Shown piece by piece: positions 1 to 59,180 of a stretch of 64,000 nucleotides of DNA. Both the position numbers and the translations under genes were made by a program. The stretch comes from an uncultured Phycisphaeraceae bacterium (GTDB lineage: Bacteria; Planctomycetota; Phycisphaerae; Phycisphaerales; Zrk34): the NCBI GenBank assembly GCA_942491355.1, contig CALOAZ010000099.1, positions 26,233 to 90,232 of the forward strand. The letters are read 5' to 3'. How positions within the stretch are numbered: the stretch's first letter is position 1; each line of letters opens with the position of its first letter. The notes under the pieces were generated by a model. The model saw only the letters and a list, made by a program, of their open reading frames with translations. It was not told the origin of the DNA and made no database searches.

Positions 1-1615
1 CCCGCCTCTTCTTGCACGAACACGACAGGCAGAAACACCGCGACGGTCGTCAGCGTCGAGGCAATGACGGCCCCCCACACCTCTTGCGTTCCCTTGACGG
101 CCGCCACGAAAGGCGGTTCCCCGAGGCTGTTGCGGCGAAAAATATTCTCCAGTACGACCACGGCGTTGTCGACCAGCATGCCCACGGCGAACGCCAAACC
201 GGCCAGACTGATCACGTTCAAAGAACGACCCAACATGCCGAGCATCAGGAACGTCCCCACGATGCTGGTAGGAATGGCCAGCCCGACGACGAGGGCACCG
301 CGGGCAAACCAGAAACCGCTCCGATGACGATGAGCCAGGCAGGCCACAAAAAACCACGGTGAAACATACGCGGCGGCCACGGCCGTCACGACGATCAAGG
401 GGATGGCGAACAACGTTCGCACGCCCAGATGCAGGAACAACATCAGCACGATCATGGTCAGCGCGCCGCCGATGAAGATGTTCTGCTGCACGAGGTTGAT
501 CGACGAGTAGATGTATTCGGTTTCGTCGTAGACCTGCATCAGCTGCAATCCCCGCCGCTTGAGCAGTCCCTCGTCCAACTCGCGGGTGGCTTGACGCAAC
601 CCCTCCATGACATCGAGCACGTTGCTGCCCGTCTCGCGCAAGCAGTTTAGCGCAATGCTCGATTCACCGAAGCGGCGCACCAAACCATCGGGCTTCTTGT
701 GTCCCAAGCGCACTTCGGCCACATCACGGACGAAAACAGGGGCGCCGTCACGCACGGCCAGCAACTGGTTCTCAACCTGCGCGGGATCGCGAAACTGTCC
801 CAGGGCCCGTACGACCCACCGGCGTTTGCCTTCCCAGAAATCGCCGGCCGACGTGTCTTCGTTCTGTGCGTTGAGCACGCGCCGCACGTCGCTGAGCGTT
901 AAGCCCCGCGCCGCGAGCTTCTCCGGATCGACGATCACCTGCAGTTCGTCCTCCAGACCACCGATCACGTTGGACTGGGAGACGCCGGGCACGCGTTCGA
1001 AACGGGCTTCGATTTCGTCTTCGGCGAAGCGCCGCAGCTTGGTGACGTCCAGATCCGGCGGCAGCAGTTCGTCGAACTCGGGATGCTCCTTGGCGAGCAA
1101 CCGCAACCGGAGCATGGCCAGGCCCACATTGTGCGACTCGCGAACCGTTTCGCGATTGTTCGGCCAGTTCGGGATGGCGCGGCGAACTCGTCCAGTTCTG
1201 CCGGGCGTGGGTCGCGAGCGCTGAGGATGAACCAGGCAATCGGACGGTCCGACGCATTGGAGGTGCTGATGACCGGCTGATCCGCGTCCTCGGGGTATTC
1301 GCGAACCTGCTGCAAACGGCTGTTGACCTTCAGCAGCGCCTCTTCCATGTTGGTGCCGACGAGGAACTCGAGCGTGATCGTGCCGCGGGAATCGGCGCTT
1401 TCCGAGGTCATCTTCGTGATGCCCTCGACGCTCTTGAGCTGCTCCTCCTGCTCGATCATGATCTCCTGCTCAACTTCCTGAGGGCTCGCGCCGGGCCACC
1501 GTGTTTCGACCGTGATGGTGGGCGTCTGGACTTCGGGTGTCAGCTGCATCGGCATAGAGAGCACGCCGACGGTGACCTTCACGGGATTCCGCACAAAGGC
1601 GTCAACCAGTTGCAT
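1..1615 (-). pseudogene. RND (AcrB/HAE1-type) efflux permease, N-terminal part, runs off the window at position 1. The reading frame changes near 1180-1190.
   Basis: ORF 965..1615 begins 'MQLVDAFVRNPVKVTVG...TITVETRWPGASPQEVEQE', a typical RND N-terminus, and degenerates after '...PAELDEFAA'. My translation of the neighbouring minus frame from about 1178 to 1 is open. It reads '...KLRRFAEDEIEARFERVPGVSQSNVIGGLEDELQVIVDPEKLAARGLTLSDV...LAGLAFAVGMLVDNAVVVLENI', so the same protein continues in another frame. Confidence 0.8.
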
Positions 1616-1806
1616 ACGGCTCAGGGGTTCGTGGTTAGGTGTCTCGGGGATGGCAGCGGCCGTGGAGGACGCCCCACGGGGGGCGTGCCATGGAGGAGGG
1701 ATTGGCCCCTCGCAAAAGCTCGCGGCGTCCTACCCAAGTGCAATTCAAGACCGGGTGGTGGCCCGCGGTGACCGCGGTTTCCCCGCTCAGGTGAACATCT
1801 CGTGAT

Positions 1807-3220
1807 TCACGGTGCCTGTCCCCCCGGCGATTTGAAGTCAGAGTCCAGAAGTTGTGCAACGGTGACTTCCTGTCCGGGACGCAGTCGTTCATTGCCCATG
1901 ACGACCAACAGCTGTCCTTCTTCAATCCCTCCCTCGACGGCAATCAGCTTCTGATCAGCGACGCCCAGCTTAACGGGGATCGGTTGGACGATCCCCGTCG
2001 CGTTATTATCTGCGTTCGGTTGAATCACGAAAACCGCAGGTTGTGGCCCTCCCATGACCAGGGCATCCTTCGGCACCAGCAACGCTTGCTGAGCTGGACC
2101 TCTCGGCAGGTGAACGCGCGCTAACCTGCCGGATTTGAGGAGCGGAGTGTCATCCTCGATGATGTTTCTTACCCGGACGATCACGGGAAACGTGCGGGCA
2201 CGTTCATCAGCCTGGGGCACGACATTGGCCACTCGTTCCCAGCCCGGAAAAATCACGGTTTGCCAACGCGGGAATTTCCACAGCAACTTCCGCGCCGATC
2301 GTCACAAAGGCAATACTCTGTTCGACGACGTATGTGATCACTTCAACCTCGTCCAGCGCCGCCACCTCCACCAGGGGATCACCCTGTTTGACCCGCCGCC
2401 GATTTCCGTAAACTCCGCCGTGGACGAAGCCTCCGAGAACGCGAGATCAGCGCGTGTGTTCCAAGAGTCGATCCCCTGCAGCAGCTGCACGACTGCCTGC
2501 TGCATGGCCACGCGAAGGGCATGCCATTCAATTTGCTCTCGTCAGGGCCCGGCGAGGGCCAGTCTGGTGTCCGCAAACGGATTTTCCGTAAGCCTGCTCA
2601 GCTGCCACCGCGGCACGAGATGGCCCCTCCTCCAGGGCGTCCCTCGGCCGATGTGGCCTGGCCCCGTAGCGGTAAGCCCCGGCGCAGAGACTCTCCGAGA
2701 CTGGTATTCGGCGTGCGCTTTCAGTCGAGCATCTCTGCCTTGGCACGTGCCTTCTCCTCAGGACGCGTGCCGTTTTCCAGCTCACATGCCAATTCAGATT
2801 GCTTCAGTTCAATTCCTGATTCCGCCCTGAGCAGTTCGAGTTCGATCGTCTCGGTCAAAAGCCGCGCCCCAGCGGCTGCCCTGCTCGACGTTCGCCCAGC
2901 CCGTTGACGTGAAACTCCGCCACGCGGCCGTCGGCCGACCGCGCTGCCGAATCGTCGCGGTTTTCAGCGACCGCACCGTTCTTGGCGATACGGATCGCGA
3001 GGCTGTACCATGTTGACCACGCGGGTAGCCACTACGGGCGCTGGCGGCATGTTGGGGCGGTTGTGCAGGAAGCTCCCGCGAGCCCTCTACCGAGGAAAAC
3101 GCGAAGGCCTTCCCGCACGTGACGACGGGGGCGTGACGTGTCAGCCTCCCCCGCGTTGCGGACGCCGGCGGTTCGGACCGCCCTCGCGAACGATGCCGCC
3201 TCGCCGACTGACATGGCCAC
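1807..3220 (-). pseudogene. RND periplasmic adaptor (HlyD/MFP family) with several frame breaks and an in-frame stop. The 5' limit is uncertain.
   Basis: Intact C-terminal ORF 1807..2286 ('...ANVVPQADERARTFPVIVRV...VPKDALV...VKLGV'). Upstream pieces of the same protein sit in other minus frames: 'GRVKQGDPLVEVAALDEVEVITYVVEQSIAFVTIGAEVAVEIP' (about 2270-2400) and the coiled-coil piece 'LLTETIELELLRAESGIELKQSELACELENGTRPEEKARAKAEMLD' (about 2724-2862). A TGA lies at 2447-2449 inside 'LEHTR*SRVLGGFVHGG'. Confidence 0.6.
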
Positions 3221-3658
3221 CTCCGGGAGTCAGCCTTCTCAAGAGATGTATCTGGGGAATCGTGACATGCGGGAAATTCTGGTTGTCGAGGCACGGACAG
3301 CCCCGGCCCTGCTGACGCCTGAAGTCTCGCATTATAGTCCACGTGGTTCCGCACGCGTCTCGTAATTTTCAGCCCCGTCGGCTTTTGATGTTGCGCACTT
3401 GCGTAGGACGAATTGGCCAGGTCGTTCAACGCTTTCCATTTTGCGGCCGATTGCCAACGACATGGTGAATCGTCGCATCGCCAGGACGGATTACCCCATC
3501 CGTGGGAAATTTCCTGGGCGAACCACGAGCTTTTGGGGAGGGGGCCAATCCGTCCTTCGCATCGATCGAAGAAGCTGCAACTTCAGAAGTCTGGGTGGAA
3601 GGTCGTGAAATCCGCTCATTCCGTCACGATCCGGCGGAAAACGGAGCCAAAACGGGCA

Positions 3659-4794
3659 CTATAGGGCCAGGGATGAGTCGGTGCTGGCCAGACTGCACAT
3701 GGCCGATGTTTTCAGCCCGGTGACCAACAGCAGCACCGCCAGTGCCCGCCACCTACGGCGAAGCGACATTGCGTCGGCGGCGGGCACAAGTGCCACTAAC
3801 CACAAGAGGATCAACCAGAACATCCAGCGAAATCCGCAGGTCATTCCCCCGGTAAGGGCGATCGCCGAGCGGCCCGAAGCCAATGAAGAATACGAAGCAC
3901 CGATCGTCAGCCCCGCGATCGGTGATGCCGCCGCCGCGCACCACTGCCGCCGCGTCCCCCGAAGCTGTGTCCCGCTGCGGCACGGGAGCAACCAGATCGG
4001 CGTCAGAAAGACCTCACAGATGCCCGGCGATCATTACGTGGATCCCCCCAGATCAGCTTGAGGGCTCCCCGCGATCCACGCCGCGACGATTTTCAGGTAG
4101 CCAGTAGCTGTTATCGTACACGTACCAGTTGTCACCGCGCCAATCCTCACCCTCGGCCCGGTGGGCGTACGGCAGTCGCCAGCTGTCGTGTGCCAGGTGG
4201 TTGGTGAAAAAGAACGCTGCAGCGACCAGGAGGACAGGTAGCAAAAACCACCGGAGCGTCCGGGAAGCGCGCTTACCATAACAGGCCCCCTCCCCGACGC
4301 CGCGAGAAACGCCGCGCCGCGGAGGTTCATTCGCTGTCGCGGCTGCGGCCGGCTAGTCCCGCCACCGCGAACAGACCGCCCCCGCGGGCCCGTCGTACCA
4401 AATCCGTGCGCTTGCGTCATGGGCCACCATTGCCGCAGCGGCTGCGGGCAGATGATTATTGATGACCATGCCAAAGGTGGGCTGAAAGGGTGCTCCCGTG
4501 CTGCACGCCATGACCTCCGTCTGACCTCAGGAGTTAGCCGAACCCCAGCGGCGGACACTCAGCCACGGCAATCCAGAGCAATGCCAACAGGGTTCCGTTC
4601 GTCAACAGCATCAACCGTCCGACGCGAAACGGGTACTCGGTGCCAGTGTCCAGCCCCGTGAGCTGTTTGATGACCCAGTAAACGCCGTGGCAACACGGCA
4701 GTGCGATAGAGGGGCGGTTACTGGAATAAAGTGCTGTGACCGTCTCGTCCTCGTGAGAACACCTTGTCAATCGAATTCCAGCTCTTGTCCGCAA
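3659..4794 (-). other. Fragmented membrane-protein coding remnants, possibly an ArnT/PMT-like (GT39/GT83) glycosyltransferase
   Basis: Short minus-strand ORFs in different frames have protein-like hydrophobic stretches. Examples are 4534..4794 ('HGVYWVIKQLTGLDTGTEYPFRVGRLMLLTNGTLLALLWIAVAE', like the first loop and TM region of ArnT-type enzymes), 4053..4244 ('LPVLLVAAAFFFTNHLAHDSW...') and 3659..3991 ('FRWMFWLILLWLVALVPAA'). No continuous ORF exists. Confidence 0.3.
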
Positions 4795-4802
4795 TCACGT
4801 TA

Positions 4803-5379
4803 TCAATTTCGTAGGTGCCTTCGTCCACGAGTACTCGAGACGTACACCAGCGACTGCGATCGTCTGGCTCCCAGGAAGGGCAGGTCACCGCGGGCGTTCG
4901 TCACTTCCAACAGGATGCGGACGGCCAGCATGATAAAGGCAAACGTTACCAGTGCCGAAACAACGCGCCCGTTGCCAAGGCGATTGCACCGTGTTGGTCC
5001 GTCATGACAGTTCCGCCGGTCGCGGCTTTCAGGTAGCGGTTCGAAAGCCGTCACGTTGGCGGCCTGGGAGACGCTTCCTGGAGTTGAACGCGAGCGGCGC
5101 ACCGTGGATCCGCCGCCGCCATCCATGCGTGCAGATCCCCGCCCGCTCGAGGATGGAGTACGGCGCCCGGACGGTGCGGCCGTTACCGTGATCAGCTCCG
5201 CCAGAAAACCCACCGCCATGAACTGTGAGCCTAACAGCAACGCGGCCAGGGAGAGTAGAAGAACAAGGCCCGCTGGTGCAAGTGGACCGGCTCCCAGCCG
5301 AGCAAGGCGCGGACAAAAAGGCCACCACCCCGGTGTCAACGTGGTAATTCCCACCGGAACCTGCCACGAAGCCGATCAA
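4803..5379 (-). pseudogene. C-terminal remnant of a GT2 (ArnC/GtrB-like) polyprenyl-phosphate glycosyltransferase, 5'-truncated and frame-shifted
   Basis: One minus frame reads 'TPGWW...LVLLLSLAALLLGSQFMAVGFLAELIT' and another continues 'GRTVRAPYSILER'. Together these resemble the PGW...G.Q...G..GEY..R....RP.Y tail of GT2 enzymes. No catalytic domain lies upstream because the Fic remnant abuts at about 5380-5395. Confidence 0.35.
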
Positions 5380-6066
5380 CCCGATCGACGAGCGGTTCGC
5401 CCGTTGCCATCTGGATATTTATGAATCCATGCCAGATACAAGTGAGCAATAACGGCTTTTATGATTCCAACGCCAACACTATTTAATCCCTCTTGATGAA
5501 TACCGAGATCATCATTAAGCCAATCGATTAATCGGCCAACCAGGTAATTACAATCCTCTCTTGGCACAGCCCTGTATCCACCAACAGTCAGCGGTCGGCT
5601 AGAAACACAACCCGCCATCTCTCCCTCAAGCGGAATTCCATCAAGCACCAATTCATTGAATATGTCGAATTGTCGATCTGGTATTTGAAATACAGAAGCG
5701 GCGTCATTAAAAACCTGCTTCACAATTTTGCCGCAGGCCGCCGTTATATTTTGTACTTCTTTTTCTAGATACTTTTGGGGAGTCCGGAAGCTCTAGCTGG
5801 TTCTGTATACTCTTTTCTACGTCGTCTTCGCTTAACGTATTTCCCTCAATCGCAGTTGTCGCCCTCACCCCCTTGGCCAGATAAAGATAATGCATCTTTC
5901 TGGCATGCTTAGGCTTCAACGGGACCCCAGACAAATGCTCAACTTTTGATTGGCACTCGCCCAGCATTATCCAGAATTTATGAGAGGCCAATGTTAAATC
6001 CAGTCGAAAATCAACATGCGGATGCGTCCTCTCATATGGCCTTATAAGTGTCCCTGATGCTGTCAT
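5376..6066 (-). pseudogene. Fic/DOC-family (AMPylase-type) gene with one frameshift and a truncated 3' end
   Basis: ORF 5707..6066 carries the N-terminal inhibitory-helix-like motif 'TTAIEGNTLSE'. ORF 5376..5723 carries the Fic core 'HKYPDGNGRTAR'. The two join in different frames at the short A/T run 5773-5776 ('...ELPDSPK' then 'KYLEKEVQNITAACGKIVKQVFND'). The ORF stops 4 codons after the Fic motif, where composition switches from AT-rich to GC-rich. Confidence 0.75.
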
Positions 6067-6171
6067 TGCAACCCCTTTATATAAAACATATTGCAGATAT
6101 CAACCTGCTTTATGATCGCCATCTGTGTCCACAATTATACCACATATCCATGGTTTTTCTGATCTTTTTTA

Positions 6172-6199
6172 TTGACACTGATGTTGCGTCATGTATAAT
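6172..6199 (+). promoter_or_regulatory. Consensus sigma-70-like promoter upstream of the transposase
   Basis: TTGACA (6172-6177), a 16-nt spacer, then TATAAT (6194-6199), 21 nt upstream of the ATG at 6220. Confidence 0.45.
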
Positions 6200-6219
6200 G
6201 ATCGTGTCAGGAGCGAAGC

Positions 6220-7185
6220 ATGGCCAAAGAACAAGCAAAAGTAGCCGAGAACAAAAGCGACATAGTGCGTGAAATACCAATGGCTTGCGCCGATGAATCC
6301 GCAGCCGTTGAGTTCATGGAAAAACAGCGGTGGGGCGATACGCCGTGCTGCCCGCACTGTGGCGACACCGACGTTTACCAGATGAAGGACCAGCGAACCG
6401 GCGAGCGGAACAAGCGGCACCTGTGGCGCTGCAAGGGCTGCAACAAGCAGTACACCGTTCGGATCGGCACCGTTCTGGAAGACAGCCGCATCCCGCTCCG
6501 GCACTGGTGCTACGCCTTCTGGCGTGCCTGCACATCCAAGAAGGGTGTCTCGGCTCTGGAGATCCAGCGCCAGACCGGCCTGAGCTATAAGTCGGCCTTG
6601 TTCCTGATGCACCGCATCCGCTTTGCGATGTCCGAAATGGCCGGACCCGCAGACCGCTTCGACGGGACGGTTGAGGTCGATGAGACTTTCGTCGGCGGCA
6701 AGCCCCGCTACGTGGGGCGGGGCAACCGCGAAAGCTGGACCCGCAAGACGCCGGTCGTTGCCGTGGTTCAGCGTGAGGGAAAATGCCGCGTCCGCGTGTG
6801 CCCTGATGTCACGGCCAAGAACGTGCGTCGCATCATCCGCGATCATGTGGCCCATTCCGCCCGTGTGATGACCGACGAATCATCGATCTACAACGACTTG
6901 GGTTATCCCTTCGAGGGCGGGCACCACACCGTGAATCACCGACGCCGCGAGTACGTTCGTGGTGAGGTCACGACGAACACGGTCGAAGGGTTTTTCAGTC
7001 TGATCAAGCGCGGCATCTACGGCGTTTATCACAACGTCAGCAAGATCCACCTGCACCGATACATGTCGGAATTCGAGTTCCGCTACAACACACGCAAAAT
7101 GGAGGACGGCGCACGGACGGTCGAAGCCATCAAGGGCGCTATCGGAAAGCGATTGATGTACCGGCGTCCACCAGCAACGGCGTGA
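6220..7185 (+). CDS. IS1595-family transposase (N-terminal zinc ribbon plus DDE domain)
   Basis: 'CCPHCG...WRCKGCNKQYTV' zinc ribbon, 'VEVDETFVGGK', '...TDESSIYNDL...HHTVNH...TNTVEGFFSLIKRGIYGVYHNVSKIHLHRYMSEFEFRYNTR'. These are the characteristic ISXO2-like/IS1595 blocks. Confidence 0.88.
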   Translation: MAKEQAKVAENKSDIVREIPMACADESAAVEFMEKQRWGDTPCCPHCGDTDVYQMKDQRTGERNKRHLWRCKGCNKQYTVRIGTVLEDSRIPLRHWCYAFWRACTSKKGVSALEIQRQTGLSYKSALFLMHRIRFAMSEMAGPADRFDGTVEVDETFVGGKPRYVGRGNRESWTRKTPVVAVVQREGKCRVRVCPDVTAKNVRRIIRDHVAHSARVMTDESSIYNDLGYPFEGGHHTVNHRRREYVRGEVTTNTVEGFFSLIKRGIYGVYHNVSKIHLHRYMSEFEFRYNTRKMEDGARTVEAIKGAIGKRLMYRRPPATA

Positions 7186-7269
7186 GCGATCACGCCCGTC
7201 TGTATAATCAGTTCGATACCCTGCTGCATCCGCGCGAGCCGGAGCAGCTATTATTGTTTGAGACCAGCT

Positions 7270-7452
7270 ATGAGCGAAAACAAGCCAAAAAAAGATGGCA
7301 AAGACAAAAAGCCCGGGCCAGACGAAGAAAGGCTCAAGCTTGATGGTGTCGATTGGGAAGATGCGATTGGCCACGCGCTCAAAAAGAAGCGCCCGGCTGA
7401 TGGCTGGCCAAAGAAAAGCGAAGAATCAGAAGACGAGAAGGACGGCGATTAA
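7270..7452 (+). CDS. Small highly charged (Lys/Asp/Glu-rich) hypothetical protein
   Basis: ATG at 7270 ('MSENKPKKDGKDKKPGPDEERLKLDGVDWEDAIGHALKKKRPADGWPKKSEESEDEKDGD'). No clear RBS and no recognised domain. Confidence 0.3.
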   Translation: MSENKPKKDGKDKKPGPDEERLKLDGVDWEDAIGHALKKKRPADGWPKKSEESEDEKDGD

Positions 7453-7616
7453 CCCACCTTTTCCCGCATGGTCCCACAAAATCCCACTTCTTGCGTTAGG
7501 TACATACTTCCGAGACGTCGCGGAAATGCGTGAGGTGCGTCACATCAGAACGTTATGCAGACAAATGCCGTTGTTAAAGTGGTTCCTGCTCACAAGGCTT
7601 TTCATAGGAGTATGCC

Positions 7617-8042
7617 GTGGACAAAATCACATTGATAAACAATCTCAACAAAGATCTGGCTGGTGAATTGGGGGCCATTGTTCAATACATCACGTATGCC
7701 GCCAAAGTCACTGGTCCCTATCGTCCTCAATTGACACAGTTCTTTCTCGCTGAAGTTGCAGACGAACAACTGCACGCTCAATATTTGGCTAACAAAATCG
7801 TGGCATTGGGCGGAGAACCCACGACGACACCGCGCCCCGTACCTGTGGCAAAATCAAACCTTGAAATGCTTAAAGCGGTTCTGACTGCGGAAAAACAGGC
7901 AACCGAAGATTATTCTCGGCGCGCAAAAGAAGCCGACGCGTTTGGCGACAAGGGTCTATGTGTTCAATTGGAAGATATGGTCCGAGATGAGAGTGGGCAC
8001 GCCGATGAAACCGAGCGAATATTGCGAGATTGGCCTCTCTGA
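7617..8042 (+). CDS. Ferritin-like / bacterioferritin-like (DPS-like) di-iron protein
   Basis: 'INNLNKDLAGELGAIVQY', 'EVADEQLHAQYLANKIVALGGEP' and 'DESGHADETERIL' parallel the bacterioferritin helices and the E..H metal ligands. GTG start with the 'AGGAG' RBS upstream. Confidence 0.7.
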   Translation: MDKITLINNLNKDLAGELGAIVQYITYAAKVTGPYRPQLTQFFLAEVADEQLHAQYLANKIVALGGEPTTTPRPVPVAKSNLEMLKAVLTAEKQATEDYSRRAKEADAFGDKGLCVQLEDMVRDESGHADETERILRDWPL

Positions 8043-8153
8043 GTGTTCGGCATAACTAGGTCCTGCTACGGACGCGCCTGGCCAGCTTCATCTCCATCGG
8101 TGCGCTGCATGCCGCAAAGCTGAAAGATGTTAGAACGTTAGAAGGATAGTAGA

Positions 8154-8732
8154 TCAGTAGATCAGCGAAACAGCCTGCTCGACTGTTTCGACGACTTGGC
8201 GCGCCGTGACCGGCTTGCGGAGACATGCCGAAAAACCGAAGCGCCCAAGCTGCTTGGCTTGTCCGTCGGTGAGCCGGGCGCTGAGGGTGATGATCTGAGT
8301 GCCCTGAAGTTCATCCGAAGCCTGCACATGACCGAGCATCCGCTGTGGATCGACATCGGCCAGATCCACATCCAGAAGCATGGCATGCGGACGGAATCGC
8401 TCGCACTCGATGCCGGCGGCAAAGCCCGAATCCACACGGCGCACCTCGTAGCCAGCTCCATGACTCAGTTCCTGTTCGAGTGCAGCAGCAAAGGCGGGAT
8501 CACCTTCCACGATCAGCACGCGTGTCCGGCCTGATTTCAGACCATCCATCGGAATCTCGTGCTGCTTCATGAATTGAATCAGGGCATTGAGCGGGATGCG
8601 CCGGTCTTTCGAGCCGGGAATGCGATATCCCTTGAGCTTGCCCGAATCAAACCACTTGCTCACGGTGCGAGGCGCCACATTGCAGAGCTCGGCGACCTCA
8701 CCTGTTGTCATTACGTCTTTGCGTCGAGCCAT
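8154..8732 (-). CDS. Response regulator with an N-terminal excisionase/MerR-type HTH and a C-terminal receiver domain
   Basis: 'MTTGEVAELCNVAPRTVSKWFDSGKLKGYRIPGSKDRRI' (HTH_17-like). The receiver has 'RVLIVEGD', the phospho-acceptor context 'MLLDVDL', 'IITLSA' and 'LRKP'. Confidence 0.8.
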   Translation of the reverse strand: MARRKDVMTTGEVAELCNVAPRTVSKWFDSGKLKGYRIPGSKDRRIPLNALIQFMKQHEIPMDGLKSGRTRVLIVEGDPAFAAALEQELSHGAGYEVRRVDSGFAAGIECERFRPHAMLLDVDLADVDPQRMLGHVQASDELQGTQIITLSARLTDGQAKQLGRFGFSACLRKPVTARQVVETVEQAVSLIY

Positions 8733-9247: not shown

Positions 9248-9825
9248 CGGCCTCTGCGGCACAACCCGGTGGCATCGGCGGCGGCCTGCACGAACAGCCC
9301 GAAGAATTTTCGGTGGATGAATTGCTCGATGCTGATCCCGAAGGCGTTGGCGATGTGCTTTATCTGTTGATCGAGAAACGCCATCGCTCCACCGCCGAAG
9401 TAGCGACCGAACTTGCGACAGCACTGGGCCTGCCGCACGACGCGGTGCGCTACGCCGAACCCCTTGAAATCCAGGCCACCGCACGACAGTGGTTCAGCGT
9501 GATCGGCGCCAGCATGTCTGATAGTGAATCGATCACACTCGCGCAGGCCCTCATCCTTGCCCGGGATCAGCACGATGTGCCGATTGCCGAAGCCTCGCCC
9601 GGCAGCAAGCGATACGTCGTGCGCGTGCGACAAGTCCGCGCGACCGATGCGATCCGCGCCAAAATGATTTTGGATCAACAATCCGAACTGCTCGAAGCCT
9701 CTGCCAGTGGCGGCGGCGACGAACGCGGTCCTTATGTGGAATTGCGATTCGAGTTGCCCAGAGGCGGCGACTGCGGCGCCGTGCTGCGCGCGATCATGGG
9801 AACGGATGTGACACTCGATGTCTGA
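9244..9825 (+). CDS. Truncated TruD-like (tRNA pseudouridine synthase D family) protein lacking the central insertion domain
   Basis: 'PEEFSVDELLDADPEGVGDVLYLLIEKRHRSTAEVATELATALGL' and 'YAEPLEIQATARQWFSV' align to E. coli TruD '[20 protein letters not shown]..' and 'FAGQKDKHAVTEQWL'. The C-terminal 'VELRFELPRGGDCGAVLRAIM' aligns to '[21 protein letters not shown]'. Only 193 aa. ATGA overlap with the upstream gene and an 8-nt overlap with recJ. Confidence 0.6.
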   Translation: MTASAAQPGGIGGGLHEQPEEFSVDELLDADPEGVGDVLYLLIEKRHRSTAEVATELATALGLPHDAVRYAEPLEIQATARQWFSVIGASMSDSESITLAQALILARDQHDVPIAEASPGSKRYVVRVRQVRATDAIRAKMILDQQSELLEASASGGGDERGPYVELRFELPRGGDCGAVLRAIMGTDVTLDV

Positions 9826-49479: not shown

Positions 49480-49568
49480 GCGAGAATATACCGTGTGTGC
49501 CGCACGAAAGGGGTGAATCCGCCGCACACCCTCTAAGATGGTGCCACATCACTGCCGGAGGACCGACC

Positions 49569-50693
49569 ATGATCATGCCGCTGTTTCGACGCACCCTGAT
49601 GATATTGACGTCAGGCATACTGCTGAGCGCCTGCGCACCGGCAGGCACGATCGTCTCTGAATCCTGGGGCGAAACCGACGGGCAGCCGATTTTTCTGTAC
49701 ACGATGACCAATGGCAGCGGCCTGACGGCAAAGGTCACCAACTACGGCACGCTCCTGACCGAAATGCACGCGCCGGATCGCCACGGCCAGACCGCCGATG
49801 TGGTGCTGGGCTTTGATCATCTGGCTCGATATCTGCAGGGCCATCCCGCATTCGGCAGCAACGTGGGGCGCGTGGCCAACCGCATCGCCGGTGGCGTGTT
49901 TGCGCTGGATGACAAAACCATCACGCTCGAAAAAAATGCCGGCGCTCATCACATTCACGGTGGGCGAAACGGATTTCACAAACGCGTGTGGAACGTTGAG
50001 ATGAAGCGCACGCCCGACGGGCCAGCCATACGATTCAGTCGGCGCAGCCCAAGCGGCGAAGAAGGCTACCCGGGCAATCTCGATGTCGCGATCACTTACA
50101 GCCTCAGCATGCGCAATGAGTTGATCATCGATTTTGAGGCGACCACGGATCAACCCACGCTCGTGAATCTCGCGCATCACAGCTATTGGAATCTGGCCGG
50201 TCACGGTGCTGGATCGGTGCTCGATCACGAACTGAAGATCGAAGCAGATCGATACATGCCGCATGACGGCGCGGGCTTACCCACCGGTGCCATTTTGCCG
50301 GTCGACGGTACGCCGCTGGATTTCCGGCACTCGAAAAAAATCGGCGCCGACATGGCGCGGCTCGCGCCGCTCGATGGATATGACCACAATTTTGTGGTGC
50401 GCGGTGCCACCGACACTTTGCGCCCCGTGGCTGAAGTTTATGAACCCACTTCCGGGCGCGTGATGACGATCCAGTCCACGCAACCCGGCGTGCAGCTCTA
50501 TACCGCCAACGGCTTGAATGCCAAGCAGAGCGGCAAGGGTGCAACCTACGGGCCCCACGGCGCTTTATGCCTGGAAACCCAGCACTTTCCGGATGCGATT
50601 CACCATGAAGGCGATCCGAACTGGCCCTCGGTCATTCTGCGACCGGGTGCGATTTACAAGCACCGCATGGTCATGCGATTTTCGACCCGTTGA
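49569..50693 (+). CDS. galM: Aldose 1-epimerase (galactose mutarotase), lipoprotein form, copy 1
   Basis: Lipobox 'LLSAC'. 'VGRVANRIAGGVF', 'HHIHGG', 'NLAHHSYWNL', 'GALCLETQHFPDA'. Confidence 0.88.
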   Translation: MIMPLFRRTLMILTSGILLSACAPAGTIVSESWGETDGQPIFLYTMTNGSGLTAKVTNYGTLLTEMHAPDRHGQTADVVLGFDHLARYLQGHPAFGSNVGRVANRIAGGVFALDDKTITLEKNAGAHHIHGGRNGFHKRVWNVEMKRTPDGPAIRFSRRSPSGEEGYPGNLDVAITYSLSMRNELIIDFEATTDQPTLVNLAHHSYWNLAGHGAGSVLDHELKIEADRYMPHDGAGLPTGAILPVDGTPLDFRHSKKIGADMARLAPLDGYDHNFVVRGATDTLRPVAEVYEPTSGRVMTIQSTQPGVQLYTANGLNAKQSGKGATYGPHGALCLETQHFPDAIHHEGDPNWPSVILRPGAIYKHRMVMRFSTR

Positions 50694-50769: not shown

Positions 50770-51954
50770 ATGGAGGATTCCCCAATGCCCACCTTTTGTT
50801 TTCGCACCGCCCTTCGTGGCGCCGGACTTCTGACGCTCACCGCCGCACTCAGCGCCTGCCTCGGTTCAAAGGATGCTGCCATGACCACTGCACCCGCTGC
50901 TGCAAACAGCGCCATCACCGAAGCGCCCTTCGGCGAAACCGATGGCAAAGCCGTCAAGCTTTTCACGCTCACCAATGCCAACGGCCTGGTTGCCAAGATC
51001 ACCAATTACGGCGGCATCGTCACCGAACTGCATGTGCCGGATAAAAGCGGCAAGTCTGCCGATATCGTTCACGGCTTTGCCAAACTCGATGATTATCTCA
51101 AAGGCCATCCTTATTTCGGCGCGATGGTCGGTCGCGTGGGCAACCGCATCAAGAACGCCACGTTTACGCTCGACGGCAAAACCTACAAACTCGCGGCCAA
51201 CAACGGCGCGCATCATTTGCACGGCGGCCAAAAAGGCTGGGACAAAGTGGTGTGGGATGCCAAAGCGCAGAAATCCGCTGACGGCCCGACATTGATCCTC
51301 ACCTACACCTCTGCCGATGGCGAAGAAGGCTACCCCGGCACCGTGCAAGCACGCGTGGTTTACACGCTCACGAACAACAACGAGCTGCGCATCGAAACCA
51401 CCGCAACTGCCGACAAAGCCACGCCGGTGAATGTGGTGCATCACACCTATTGGAACCTCGGCGGCACCGGCTCGGGATCCATCAAGAATCACGTGCTCAA
51501 ACTGCATGCCACCAAATACACACCCGGCGATGAAACACTGGTGCCCACAGGAAAAATCGCGCCGGTCTCCGGCACGCCCTTTGATTTTTCGACGGGCAAA
51601 GCCATCGGCAAAGATCTGACGGCTGCCGGTGGCGATCCGGTCGGCTACGACCTGAACTTCGTGGTGGATGGCGACGCCGCCAAACTGCGTCCTGTCGCCC
51701 GCGTGAAAGATCCTGCCAGCGGACGCGTGATGGAACTTTTTGCCGATCAACCCGGCGTGCAGTTCTACACCGGCAACTTCATGGATGGCACCACCACCGG
51801 CAAAGGCGCCAAGCACGCGCAGCATTCGGCATTCTGCCTTGAGACGCAGCAGTTTCCGGATTCGATCAACAAACCCGCCTGGCGCGATCGCGTCGTCCTC
51901 AAGCCCGGCAAAACCTACACGCACACGATGATTCATCGCTTCACGGCGGAGTAA
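50770..51954 (+). CDS. galM: Aldose 1-epimerase (galactose mutarotase), lipoprotein form, copy 2
   Basis: Lipobox 'ALSAC'. 'VGRVGNRIKNATF', 'HHLHGG', 'NVVHHTYWNL', 'SAFCLETQQFPDS'. Confidence 0.88.
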   Translation: MEDSPMPTFCFRTALRGAGLLTLTAALSACLGSKDAAMTTAPAAANSAITEAPFGETDGKAVKLFTLTNANGLVAKITNYGGIVTELHVPDKSGKSADIVHGFAKLDDYLKGHPYFGAMVGRVGNRIKNATFTLDGKTYKLAANNGAHHLHGGQKGWDKVVWDAKAQKSADGPTLILTYTSADGEEGYPGTVQARVVYTLTNNNELRIETTATADKATPVNVVHHTYWNLGGTGSGSIKNHVLKLHATKYTPGDETLVPTGKIAPVSGTPFDFSTGKAIGKDLTAAGGDPVGYDLNFVVDGDAAKLRPVARVKDPASGRVMELFADQPGVQFYTGNFMDGTTTGKGAKHAQHSAFCLETQQFPDSINKPAWRDRVVLKPGKTYTHTMIHRFTAE

Positions 51955-52027
51955 GCGTCGCCGCAACGACAACGACCACCACTGGATCGGATTTTCAGCC
52001 AGCGCGATCAAAGAGGTGGGTGAGTGT

Positions 52028-52050
52028 TGTGGCAATGCAAGACCTGATCC
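52028..52050. repeat. Left arm of an inverted repeat flanking the AT-rich orphan ORF
   Basis: TGTGGCAATGCAAGAC (52028-52043) is the exact reverse complement of 52705-52720. The imperfect extension CTGATCC versus TTGACCC matches 5 of 7. Confidence 0.85.
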
Positions 52051-52080
52051 TTAATCTCCTGCTATGGCGGGGCTCTAATT

Positions 52081-52665
52081 ATGCTGATTAGTGAGCTTAA
52101 TTTTAACAATCTTTGTGATTTTCTCCGCCCAATATTACGCAAGCAAAGCCGCGAAGATATCCACGATGCTGGAGCGTCAATATTAAATTTCTCGCCTTGC
52201 CTTGAGGGCGAAGTGCGTCGGCATTGCGAAATCAAGCCAACACTGCGCTATCGCAATTATGATATTACAGTCTGCTTGTTGTGCTACTACGAGGGATACG
52301 GGATAGCGGCGCACTTAACATTTAGGGCTAAACCTAAAATCTGGAACTTATTTCCAAACGCTGGTTTAGTGTCGGACTTAAAGCGAGCCTGTATCTTGTC
52401 TATGGGTCATCTGAAATTTGAAAAATGTGACCATGATAATAAGTACGGCAAGGTTACTGCCTACTGCGATCGCCGCGCGATTAATCCGGAATGGGATCGC
52501 TCATTAGACATGTCGCCGCTAGCAATTTGCCCGAGTGAAAACGATCGCTATTGTTATGTTGAATTGTTTTTTTGGGGTGGAGCTTACAAATTGCTTGATG
52601 GCGAAGTGGTTCCCCGGTCAGATTGGAAGCAATTTTGTGATTACAATAAACTGCTTCGAGTATAA
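52081..52665 (+). CDS. Cys-rich orphan protein (194 aa) in an AT-rich cassette
   Basis: Uninterrupted ORF whose composition differs sharply from its neighbours ('MLISELNFNNLCDFLRPILRK...CEIKPTLRYRNYDITVCLLCYYEG...FEKCDHDNKYGKVTAYCDRR...'). No domain recognised and the RBS is weak. Confidence 0.5.
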   Translation: MLISELNFNNLCDFLRPILRKQSREDIHDAGASILNFSPCLEGEVRRHCEIKPTLRYRNYDITVCLLCYYEGYGIAAHLTFRAKPKIWNLFPNAGLVSDLKRACILSMGHLKFEKCDHDNKYGKVTAYCDRRAINPEWDRSLDMSPLAICPSENDRYCYVELFFWGGAYKLLDGEVVPRSDWKQFCDYNKLLRV

Positions 52666-52697
52666 GCGGCGAAGTGTTTCTAGGTCCCAGCGGAAAG

Positions 52698-52720
52698 GGG
52701 TCAAGTCTTGCATTGCCACA
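52698..52720. repeat. Right arm of the inverted repeat flanking the AT-rich orphan ORF
   Basis: GGGGTCAAGTCTTGCATTGCCACA. The core 52705-52720 is the reverse complement of 52028-52043. Confidence 0.85.
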
Positions 52721-52757
52721 TTCTGGCGCATGACAATTCGACGCCTACGAAATCACA

Positions 52758-54077
52758 TCAATCGCGTGGCATGTCCACAATCGGAATGCAAACCGGATCA
52801 TCCTGAATCGCTTCGAGCCCCGCGATCTGTTCGGCGGCCGCAGCAATCGCGCCGCCGCTGGCGGCATGCGTGGTAATCACGATGGGCACAAAGCCCGGTG
52901 CGTCGCCGGCCGGTTCATGCTGCAGAATCGCAGAGATTGAAATCTCTTCCTGGCCGAGAATCGAAGTCAGCGCAGCCATCACGCCCGGCTGATCCTTGGC
53001 AACCATACGGATGTAATGGCGCGACATGATTTCTGCCGGGCGCAACAGCTTGGCGGGCTCTTGTTGATCCGGCCAGAGATTCATCGTCTGAAAAGCGTGG
53101 GGATACCAGCCGCCGGCCACATTGATCAGATCACCGACGACCGAACTGGCGGTGGGCATTTGCCCGGCCCCGTGACCCACGAACAGATTCTGATACGCGG
53201 CATGGCCGACGACGCTCACGGCGTTGAGCGCTTCGCGCACCTGAGCGATCGGCTCCTGCTCATCCACGAAACACGGCGAGACGCGCAGCGAAATCGATTC
53301 GCCCTCGCGGCGCGCCACGGCAATCAGCTTGAGGGCATAACCCAGTTCGGCACCGAAATCGACATCGACACCTTCCAGGCCCTGGATGCCGCGACACGAC
53401 ACATCTGCATCGCGCACGCTCATGCCGAAGGCGAGCGATGCAATGATCGCCAGCTTCTGCGCCGCATCGGCACCCGACACATCCAGCGTCGGATCGGCTT
53501 CGGCAAAGCCCATGCGTTTTGCACCGGCCAGGGCATCCTCATATGACATGCCGTCATCGACCATGCGCGTGAGAATGTAATTGCACGTGCCGTTGAGAAT
53601 ACCGTACACCGCATCGATGCGATTGGCGGCCAGACCGAATTTGATCGCGGCCAGCACGGGAATGCCGCCGCAACAAGAAGCCTCGAATGCCAAGCTCACA
53701 CCGTGCTTGCGCGCGAGCGCAAATAATTCGGAGCCTTTGGCCGCAAGCAGACTTTTGTTGGCGGTCACCACATGACGGCCGCTTTCAAGCGCGCGCCGCA
53801 CATAGCCGCCCACCGGATCGATGCCGCCGGCCACTTCCACCACGATCTTGATTTTGGGGTCGGCGAAAAAAGCTTCGACATCATTCGTCAGCACGCCCGG
53901 CGGCAGCGTGGTGTGTCGTTTCGCACTGACATCACGCACCAGCACACGGCGCAAATCGATCGACCGCCCCAGACGCTGCGCGTAAAAACGACCGCGCTCG
54001 CCCGACAGAAGCTTGATCACGCCCTGTCCGACGGTTCCGCAACCAATCAGGCCCACGCCTATCGATTCGTTGTTCAC
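52758..54077 (-). CDS. hom: Homoserine dehydrogenase with a C-terminal ACT domain
   Basis: 'IGVGLIGCGTVGQGV', 'VVTANKSLLA', 'LAFEASCCGGIPV', 'GILNGTCNYILT'. GTG start with a GGAG RBS. Confidence 0.93.
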   Translation of the reverse strand: MNNESIGVGLIGCGTVGQGVIKLLSGERGRFYAQRLGRSIDLRRVLVRDVSAKRHTTLPPGVLTNDVEAFFADPKIKIVVEVAGGIDPVGGYVRRALESGRHVVTANKSLLAAKGSELFALARKHGVSLAFEASCCGGIPVLAAIKFGLAANRIDAVYGILNGTCNYILTRMVDDGMSYEDALAGAKRMGFAEADPTLDVSGADAAQKLAIIASLAFGMSVRDADVSCRGIQGLEGVDVDFGAELGYALKLIAVARREGESISLRVSPCFVDEQEPIAQVREALNAVSVVGHAAYQNLFVGHGAGQMPTASSVVGDLINVAGGWYPHAFQTMNLWPDQQEPAKLLRPAEIMSRHYIRMVAKDQPGVMAALTSILGQEEISISAILQHEPAGDAPGFVPIVITTHAASGGAIAAAAEQIAGLEAIQDDPVCIPIVDMPRD

Positions 54078-58953: not shown

Positions 58954-58991
58954 CCCTGTTTCAGAAACCCTCCTCTGGAACAGGGTTTTTT
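58954..58991 (+). terminator. Rho-independent terminator after the mraZ unit
   Basis: Stem CCCTGTTTCAG / CTGGAACAGGG (11 bp including one G-U), a 10-nt loop and a T6 run (58986-58991). Confidence 0.8.
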
Positions 58992-59013
58992 CGTGAACTT
59001 GTCGATCAGGCTT

Positions 59014-59180
59014 CTAGGTTCTGTCTGACGGCTCTCGCGTCGGCCTAAGATCGTCGTGGTTTTGGCGTGGCAAGGCCGATCGAAGCAGCCATATTCACAG
59101 CGATATGGCGATGCAGATCGACGCCGTCACGGCAAATCCACGACGATCGACGCTAGCGAGAGCCGTCAGACAGAACTTAG
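59014..59180. repeat. Long imperfect inverted repeat (about 167-nt hairpin) in a convergent intergenic region, overlapping the gluQ stop
   Basis: Outer arms CTAGGTTCTGTCTGACGGCTCTCGC (59014-59038) and GCGAGAGCCGTCAGACAGAACTTAG (59156-59180) match 24 of 25. Inner arms GATCGTCGTGG (59049-59059) and CCACGACGATC (59138-59148) are perfect. Confidence 0.85.

Follow-up and report, generated by a model that had tools for sequence, protein, structure and literature searches.

We analysed a 64-kb stretch of DNA from a Phycisphaerae-like planctomycete (hereafter the window) and found that positions 52028–52720, situated between a galactose mutarotase-like gene (galM-like) and a homoserine dehydrogenase gene (hom), look like a horizontally acquired, transposase-less passenger cassette of the TIRYT family. 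Judged by their sequence, the two ends of the cassette, its arms, are the same in kind as the terminal inverted repeats (TIRs) that bracket the genes of TIRYT transposases, and the DNA enclosed by them, the cargo, is foreign by composition and carries a 194-aa open reading frame (ORF). With a probability of about 55%, we attribute the insertion of the cassette, or the capture of its cargo, to TIRYT action on these repeats; the joint mobility of arms and cargo, the involvement of a TIRYT, the position of the cuts and the choice between arms that travelled with the cargo and arms that served as resident capture sites are what we infer from the arrangements described below.

The cassette and its arms

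The cassette is delimited by a perfect 16-bp inverted repeat, TGTGGCAATGCAAGAC at 52028–52043 and its exact reverse complement at 52705–52720, which extends to 23 nt with 21/23 (91%) identity (52028–52050 and 52698–52720) and leaves 647 nt between the arms. A drop in G+C content (GC) from ~0.60 coincides with the inter-arm DNA, so that the 647 bp are enclosed at GC 0.45: the 200-nt windows starting at 52000–52500 have values of 0.435–0.465, the flanks of ~0.58–0.62, and 0.58 is reached again by 52700. The 1-kb bin 52001–53000 is the GC minimum of the whole window (0.495). An earlier note, made from the sequence alone, had described an AT-rich single-gene stretch with a 16-bp perfect and ~23-bp imperfect inverted repeat, containing no transposase, with no recognisable domain in its ORF and no obvious target-site duplication at its ends, and this description was borne out on every point. 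Searches of the ORF against Pfam, NCBIfam and PADLOC gave zero matches, no transposase lies inside, and neither a target-site duplication at the cassette nor longer flanking direct repeats in the window were found. Further copies of the arms are absent from the 64-kb window at up to three mismatches, and a relaxed scan for the conserved core was also empty.

To estimate how often such a pair would arise by chance, first-order Markov simulations of the window were used: perfect 16-bp inverted repeats with both arms inside 1 kb come to 0.06 per simulated window, and any were seen in 6 of 100 simulations. The real window has two, namely the arms and an unrelated pair near 59.0–59.2 kb. A stronger argument against chance than the simulation is that the arm sequence belongs to a family of repeats present in many genomes, to which it is assigned both by sequence identity and by the motif GGGGWSAS that is characteristic of TIRYT TIRs.

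Each arm is one copy of this repeat, and the two copies face each other. In the left arm, the TGTGG end points toward galM and the mutated GGGG/CCCC end toward the cargo; in the right arm, the GGGG end points toward the cargo and the CCACA end toward hom. The GGGGWSAS motif has decayed in both (GGGGTCAA, 7/8 positions, and AGGATCAG, 6/8), the substitutions of the arms lying mostly at the GGGG end.

The minimum free energy and centroid folds of 52020–52730 pair the two arms (z = -3.3), and the ATG in the left arm opens an 18-codon ORF that overlaps the main start codon. Both observations would suit an alternative raised in the earlier note, that the arms are a local structural or regulatory repeat and pair in the mRNA as a long-range stem around the ORF. 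On this reading, the stem would control how stable the transcript is or how it is translated, and the arms would play no part in DNA mobility. The pairing is, however, trivial given 21/23 complementarity; Rfam returned zero families on 12 repeat loci or on the whole window, and a promoter and terminator scan was uninformative, with no evident promoter or terminator logic. Copies of the 24-mer are conserved in different phyla, where they surround unrelated cargo or a transposase gene, and this cross-phylum family and its transposase link are left unexplained by a stem in the mRNA. The fold suggested by the note was recovered, and a purely RNA-level role of the arms appears very improbable.

A 24-nt repeat family shared across phyla

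A scan with the 16-mer, covering one genome per species (596 Gb), gave at least 119 loci, a number compatible with chance; among the matches listed, about 55 of 129 share the next eight bases, CTGACCCC, usually preceded by A or AA. The family consensus reads (AA)ATGTGGCAATGCAAGACCTGACCCC, with TGTGGCAATGCAAGACCTGACCCC as its 24-mer form. A metagenome scan with the 24-mer gave at least 120 loci and a viral scan two more, and the pooled set comprises at least 178 loci including the window and at least 362 copies; the counts given below are among the matches listed. Further copies of the arms, by which the earlier note had set a mobile element apart from a local repeat, therefore occur in at least 177 other loci. 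The carriers in the 16-mer scan, both metagenome-assembled genomes and isolates, are labelled Actinomycetes, Solirubrobacterales, Gaiellaceae, Rokubacteria, Aminicenantes and Dehalococcoidia, as well as alpha-, beta-, gamma- and 'delta'-proteobacteria.

The commonest layout is an inverted doublet, '- +', which consists of GGGGTCAGGTCTTGCATTGCCACA, 0–100 nt and TGTGGCAATGCAAGACCTGACCCC and has its GGGG ends outward; 99 such doublets have spacers of up to 150 nt. One end of the family consensus reads GGGGTCAG and fits the published TIRYT motif GGGGWSAS exactly. The exact 24-mer is absent from the full-text literature searched and from the Di Nocera supplements. It is also absent from a collection of 72,556 plasmids, in which TIRYTs are rare, and plasmid carriage was dropped for this reason as the cause of the cross-phylum spread. 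A CRISPR repeat, an integron attC, Tn3- or Tn7-type ends and a DNA uptake sequence were likewise considered and were dropped once a Y1 gene appeared beside the repeat.

Several features of the repeat are recorded here as side observations. Outside the GGGG end, the last ~7 bases of the repeat (TGACCCC/GGGGTCA) and 5–12 nt of flank are in many cases repeated in tandem two to four times (L011 1700–1790; L079 3585–3625 and 3700–3740; L009, L077 and L059; L098 4837–4867, where AGCCACTGGGGTCA occurs twice on the cargo side of the right arm). By its sequence, this stutter looks like the footprint of repeated cutting and rejoining at the GGGG end. The repeat also contains in-frame ATGs, ATGTGGCAATGCAAGACC encoding MWQCKT and ATGCAAGACCTGACCCC encoding MQDLTP, and ORFs are predicted to start within it in the window (52035–52091), in L023 (6166–6366, a deaminase fragment), in L181 (7218) and in L185, L199 and L254; gene callers will over-extend genes there. 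L254 is an IMG/VR contig of 7381 nt from a Mu-like phage (gpT major head protein, gp36) with about twelve repeat copies at 1871–7279. They form tight doublets, whose 7-nt loop is conserved and which are flanked by CCCCGGAGT, and occupy every intergenic spacer.

The repeat brackets TIRYT transposase genes

Clustering of the ORFs adjacent to the repeats yielded one recurrent family of ~280 aa, composed of a Pfam Y1_Tnp (IS200-like) domain and a C-terminal HTH_23/HTH_28/HTH_38 domain. Its alignment shows an HUH motif (NHYHL) and a tyrosine motif (RYVVLNP), both without variation, as well as WSS and a G.HYSTVSR helix-turn-helix (HTH). The L024 protein scores 90 bits against the NCBIfam model of the REP-associated tyrosine transposase (REP_Tyr_transpos, cut-off 80), and the sole PDB sequence match of the family is 4ER8, E. 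coli TnpArep. TIRYTs have been described as RAYT-like genes that form TIRtrons, in which they are flanked by long TIRs with a common GGGGWSAS, the repeats also being found as singles, dimers and groups (Di Nocera 2013, PMC3733652), and they have been placed in TnpAREP subclass 2.1, whose members have HTH domains at the C terminus (Quentin 2018, PMC6006769). By these features, the ~280-aa genes and their 24-nt repeats match the TIRYT/TIRtron class of HUH/Y1 single-strand-DNA transposases.

A TIRYT gene is present in 28 of the 177 loci, and all 13 complete genes are bracketed by the repeat as '- gene +' with a uniform length of 856–938 nt. Eleven of the 13 complete TIRtrons have simple TIRs with the GGGG ends outward. 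L162 and L241 have the order (+ 19 nt -) TIRYT (+ 19 nt -), with the TGTGG ends outermost, and L108 has such a pair at one end; these account for the five tight '+ 18–20 nt -' pairs, all of which lie at TIRtron ends. The end pairs of L162 and L241 form a 67-nt hairpin made of a '+' copy, a palindromic spacer ATCTGGAA...TTCCAGAT and a '-' copy. The TIRYT proteins of different loci are 51–57% identical to the first sequence of the alignment, and the GC of their genes is host-like (0.44–0.71); the TIRs of these diverged loci are still at least 22/24 identical. Such a pattern suggests that the TIR site is under unusually strong constraint across phyla.

As a side observation, the repeat at its inner, TGTGG end reads ATTGCCACA (52028–52036 and 52712–52720 in the window) and there agrees with the DnaA-box consensus TT[AT]TNCACA at 7 of 9 positions. 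That consensus is quoted by Quentin 2018 (PMC6006769), where the GGGGWSAS end alone was considered and the TIRYT TIRs were judged unlike DnaA boxes. From the sequence, the C-terminal HTH of TIRYTs might bind the TGTGG inner part of the repeat.

The same layout around unrelated cargo

We compared 19 '+ ... -' pairs whose copies lie 151–3000 nt apart. They split cleanly: arms that are part of full doublets enclose DNA of host GC with ordinary genes, whereas single-copy arms enclose low-GC DNA with small accessory genes. The doublet-flanked genes encode a VOC-type protein, an EamA transporter, a hydrolase and, in the phage contig L254, Mu gpT and gp36; here the doublets merely occupy intergenic spacers. 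Three other genomes (L023, L098 and L187, the last being the same locus as L182) share the layout of the window cassette, with single copies of the repeat, TGTGG outward, and GGGG facing an unrelated low-GC cargo (Table 1). The arms, of 24–28 nt, are all that these cassettes have in common, and no conserved element backbone was found beyond them. Two further loci have related arrangements: in L017, one repeat copy borders a 1.45-kb AT-rich island, and in L248 a '+' copy and the '- -' end of a TIRtron enclose a BrnT/BrnA pair, an arrangement that by its sequence looks like a TIRtron end hairpin with cargo in the loop. The two sides of isolated single copies were also compared at loci that lack a TIRYT gene: in 10 arms, drawn from 5 loci, the GC of the 300 nt on the GGGG side is lower by 0.10 or more, and the opposite was found in none.

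Full doublets in spacers around ordinary genes (L016, L185/L203, L199, L206, L181 and L254) give weight to the idea that the repeats colonised the site independently: the gene would have come by another way, such as illegitimate recombination or an integron-type cassette at a secondary site, and resident TIRs would later have entered both spacers. In a variant of this idea, two flanking doublets would each have lost their outer half, the bracket being coincidental and never having moved as a unit. L023, where degenerate outer partner arms are kept on both sides, agrees with such a loss, and the repeat does not accompany homologues of the ORF at other loci, among them one that belongs to an integron-like array (see below). 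Against it, the two arms are the sole copies in 64 kb and both sit at composition boundaries; both face inward, here and in the three other single-copy cassettes; the low-GC side is the GGGG side in 10 arms to 0; and no relic of an outer partner arm is detectable beside the window cassette, in L187 or in L098. Taken together, independent colonisation seems somewhat unlikely.

The galM–hom spacer in relatives

The best Hom relatives of the host are 61–70% identical. Two metagenomic relatives, L121 and L122, preserve the gene order gltA-hom-(slot)-galM-apgM; ZRK34, one of the best Hom relatives, is not syntenic. In L122, which is syntenic but distant, hom and galM are 79 nt apart with no insert, and in L121 the slot is filled by an unrelated 173-aa ORF of normal GC without repeats. 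Since the spacer of the window measures 803 nt against 79 nt in L122, it contains, on this alignment of gene order, an insertion relative to L122 whose exact boundaries are unreadable at this distance.

The 194-aa ORF belongs to a rare accessory family

An exhaustive phmmer search of 1.84 billion representatives gave 23 proteins at E<1e-3 including the ORF itself, hence 22 remote homologues, the best of which is 38% identical over the full length. The conserved blocks of the family are MIxNxLxFxEL, KWWH, DLKxIC and SPLLIxPD...FVEFxFN; fusions to TPR/Sel1 repeats occur in a few members. An AlphaFold (AF2) model built from a 17-sequence alignment reaches a pLDDT of 84 (pTM 0.84), against a useless 34 for the single-sequence model, and the ORF is therefore a real, foldable protein. 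It has no known fold or domain. Structure prediction, which the earlier note had named as a way to place the ORF, thereby produced a confident model, yet a Foldseek search of this model against the PDB gave no significant fold match.

One homologue adjoins the gene of a membrane-anchored Mrr-type nuclease, another follows a PIN_8 gene, and a third lies between DUF4145 and TIR_2 genes, near YoeB/Phd and an insertion sequence (IS). Homologue P0126 is part of the integron-like array on L131, where positions 1131–8651 hold nine unidirectional small ORFs with, between them, eight copies of an unusually long (~234-nt) palindromic attC-like repeat with complementary GCTAAC/GTTAGC ends; L131 has no integrase, and an IS30-type gene is inserted within the array. 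To judge from the sequences around these homologues, the gene belongs to a floating accessory pool, and its association with the repeat is specific to this window.

A proposed model of TIRYT action

In the reading that we favour, insertion or capture by a TIRYT, the repeats and not the gene would be the conserved part, recognised in trans by a protein. In single-stranded DNA, the arms would pair into a ~23-bp stem as in a repeat doublet, and the 647-nt cargo would form its loop; a TIRYT acting in trans would bind this stem, cut and rejoin at the repeat ends, and the cargo, with or between its arms, would enter the galM–hom spacer without target duplication. Two sub-models are conceivable: (a) '+ cargo -' would move as one hairpin-like substrate, or (b) DNA would be joined at the GGGG ends of resident copies. 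The second fits the one-armed island of L017, the GC asymmetry and the TGACCCC stutter at the GGGG ends. As the GGGGWSAS motif is substituted in both arms, the cassette has probably lost its mobility by now.

A broader proposal, which we regard as unlikely, is that the TIRYT repeat also serves for single-strand recombination, an HUH/Y1 enzyme capturing and exchanging foreign cassettes at the GGGG end. This would be an integron-like system, present in many phyla, that depends on an enzyme class quite distinct from that of integrons. If this were true, the window cassette, L023, L098, L187, the L017 island and the L248 BrnTA insert would be its products.

Several observations count against TIRYT action at the window cassette. 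A tblastn search found no TIRYT gene in the 64 kb, and both arms are mutated in the GGGG motif. The polarity of the arms, GGGG inward, is opposite to that of 11 of the 13 complete TIRtrons and of the 99 doublets, although it equals that of the outermost arms of L162, L241 and L108. One border in L082 may be an exception to the rule that the lower GC lies on the GGGG side. In two genomes, what clearly replicates is the outward-facing GGGG doublet, together with its loop and several bases past the GGGG. Doublets flank ordinary host-GC genes, including phage structural genes, so repeats beside a gene are not proof of mobility. A word-indexed search of 5.8 billion proteins retrieved the ORF itself only, that is, no close homologue and no second cassette copy, and no TIRYT repeat was found at the loci of the ORF homologues. 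The 'empty site' is imprecise, the nearest relatives being so distant in Hom. Finally, L187 and L023 have direct repeats of 65 nt (8359–8423 and 9349–9413, 86% identity) and 56 nt (5472–5527 and 6455–6510, 82%), spaced 990 and 983 nt start-to-start, which correspond to the 3' end of the neighbouring host gene and lie 26–187 nt outside the arms. They imply that the inserted block was larger there than arm-to-arm and, with the degenerate outer partners of L023, argue against a simple arm-to-arm unit; no such direct repeats were found at the window cassette or at L098.

These 56–65-nt host direct repeats, which suggest recombination-type integration of a larger block, would suit yet another origin, in which a donor gene lay between two TIR doublets and a fragment with its breaks at the palindrome centres, produced perhaps through cleavage of hairpins or cruciforms, was transferred and then inserted by host recombination. 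In that case the arms would be inert scars, and no TIRYT would have acted in this genome. Doublet-cargo-doublet arrangements do exist (L011, L016 and L023), arms and cargo would both be foreign, and the window contains no TIRYT. Such hitch-hiking would nevertheless need both palindromes to have been broken precisely at their centres, independently in three cases or more; where full doublets flank a cargo, its GC is host-like, so that obvious donors of low-GC cargo are not seen, and the window has neither flanking homology nor duplication. We therefore rate this origin as unlikely.

The earlier note had likened the stretch to a mobile insertion cassette, and part of this interpretation stands. 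The arms are transposon-end repeats, which bracket a Y1 gene in 13 complete elements, the cargo is foreign, and the layout recurs with unrelated cargo. The other part is tentative: the polarity differs from that of 11 of 13 TIRtrons, the window has neither a transposase nor a further repeat copy, and the databases searched have no second cassette, so that movement as a unit is presumed.

Features of the window and of related loci

The galM-like gene ends 73 nt before the left arm, and the right arm is followed after 37 nt by the hom stop codon. The coordinates of the main features are collected in Table 1.

Table 1. Features of the cassette, its neighbours, analogous cassettes and TIRtron end hairpins
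Feature	Locus	Position	Strand	Remarks
Left arm, TIRYT-type TIR copy, '+' orientation, TGTGGCAATGCAAGACCTGATCCT	Window	52028–52051	+	22/24 to consensus TGTGGCAATGCAAGACCTGACCCC
Right arm, same repeat in '-' orientation, GGGGTCAAGTCTTGCATTGCCACA	Window	52697–52720	-	23/24 to consensus
Low-GC cargo	Window	52052–52696		GC ~0.45 vs 0.59–0.60 in flanks; sequence unrelated to cargo of analogous cassettes
194-aa ORF	Window	52081–52665	+	Sole substantial ORF between arms; rare family of ~195–215-aa proteins
18-codon mini-ORF, MQDLILNLLLWRGSNYAD	Window	52035–52091	+	ATG inside left arm; out-of-frame overlap with main ORF start
Galactose mutarotase-like gene (galM-like)	Window	50770–51954	+	Left neighbour, second of two tandem paralogues; NCBIfam
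Homoserine dehydrogenase gene (hom)	Window	52758–54077	-	Right neighbour; NCBIfam
Cassette	Window			Cargo GC 0.45, flank 0.60; 194-aa ORF
Cassette	L023			Cargo GC 0.39, flank 0.59; Pput_2613-type deaminase (toxin) fragment, ATG within repeat, and Imm10
Cassette	L098			Cargo GC 0.53, flank 0.61; SepA-family protein
Cassette	L182 (= L187, same locus)			Cargo GC 0.41, flank 0.65; 174-aa ORFan
TIRtron end hairpins	L162	689–755, 1634–1700		
TIRtron end hairpins	L241	2570–2637, 3542–3608		
TIRtron end hairpin	L108	659–724		

The two tandem galM-like (aldose 1-epimerase) paralogues of the window (the first at 49497–50693) both have N-terminal signal- or lipoprotein-like leaders, and the syntenic relatives L121 and L122 have a single galM-like gene against the two of the window. 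The second perfect inverted repeat of the window is 21 bp long (59018–59038 and 59156–59176) and extends to ~30 bp. It belongs to a palindromic element of ~165 nt (59012–59176) that resembles a miniature inverted-repeat transposable element (MITE), lies just past a terminator-like hairpin at ~58960–58990 and is unrelated in sequence to the TIRYT repeat.

Comparison with known systems

Mobile insertion cassettes (MICs, for example MIC231 of Bacillus cereus) and MITEs combine transposon-end inverted repeats and passenger DNA, without a transposase, and are presumed to be mobilised in trans. The repeats of MICs are those of a DDE transposase and have the same polarity as in the parent IS, and target duplications are made. 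The window cassette shares with them the TIRs of an autonomous element, the passenger DNA and the lack of a transposase; it differs in the HUH/Y1 nature of the parent enzyme, in having no duplication and in a polarity that matches a minority of the autonomous copies (L162 and L241). By analogy, the cassette would work most like a mobile insertion cassette with an HUH/Y1 instead of a DDE parent and with its polarity inverted relative to most parents.

In integron cassettes, too, one small gene, in many cases an orphan or of conflict type, is bounded by a site of single-strand recombination that folds. They have one complete 3' site and a tyrosine recombinase, whereas the window cassette has half-sites at both ends and is linked to an HUH/Y1 nuclease; on reading the sequence, no attC site (R''/R', RYYYAAC ... 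GTTRRRY) was found in 52028–52720, which is therefore not an integron cassette. IS200/IS605 elements and their miniature PATE derivatives use Y1 HUH chemistry on single-strand substrates, have hairpins at their ends and make no target duplication; their ends are not terminal inverted repeats, and their insertion is guided by a tetranucleotide. Their layout resembles that of the L162 and L241 TIRtrons, with a hairpin at each end.

The closest relationship by arm sequence is to the TIRtrons, in which the same repeat brackets ~280-aa Y1/HUH genes with a C-terminal HTH_23/HTH_28-type domain; in agreement with the published TIRs, it is found in singles, dimers and groups. Published TIRtrons enclose their transposase and have GGGG ends outward; the window cassette, in contrast, has the reversed polarity and a foreign passenger gene and is not a TIRtron. 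No passenger-carrying TIRYT derivative is described in the literature found on TIRYTs. REPINs and their RAYTs are also based on short inverted-doublet repeats that fold into hairpins and are tied to a Y1 transposase (Bertels & Rainey 2011, PMC3116915) and, like the TIR doublets, replicate as units within a genome. Classical REPs (repetitive extragenic palindromic sequences) are self-palindromic, GTAG-tagged, lineage-specific and vertically inherited, whereas the TIRYT repeat is not self-palindromic, has no GTAG tag and is near-identical across phyla. With a 647-nt gene-bearing spacer, the opposite polarity and only two copies in 64 kb, the window cassette is not a REPIN either.

Significance

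TIRYT elements are the second-largest subclass of RAYT-like Y1 nucleases and have been little studied. One TIR sequence has stayed nearly unchanged at every base in Actinomycetota, Pseudomonadota and Planctomycetota, the proteins having diverged to ~50–57% identity, and the cassettes give a concrete, testable hint that TIRYT repeats can bracket, and possibly move, foreign genes of conflict type (toxin/immunity, toxin-antitoxin, effector-like or orphan). If confirmed, the finding would add an HUH/Y1-based route to the acquisition of gene cassettes, and it would provide defined substrates, in terms of arm polarity and of the GGGG versus the TGTGG end, for the first TIRYT biochemistry.

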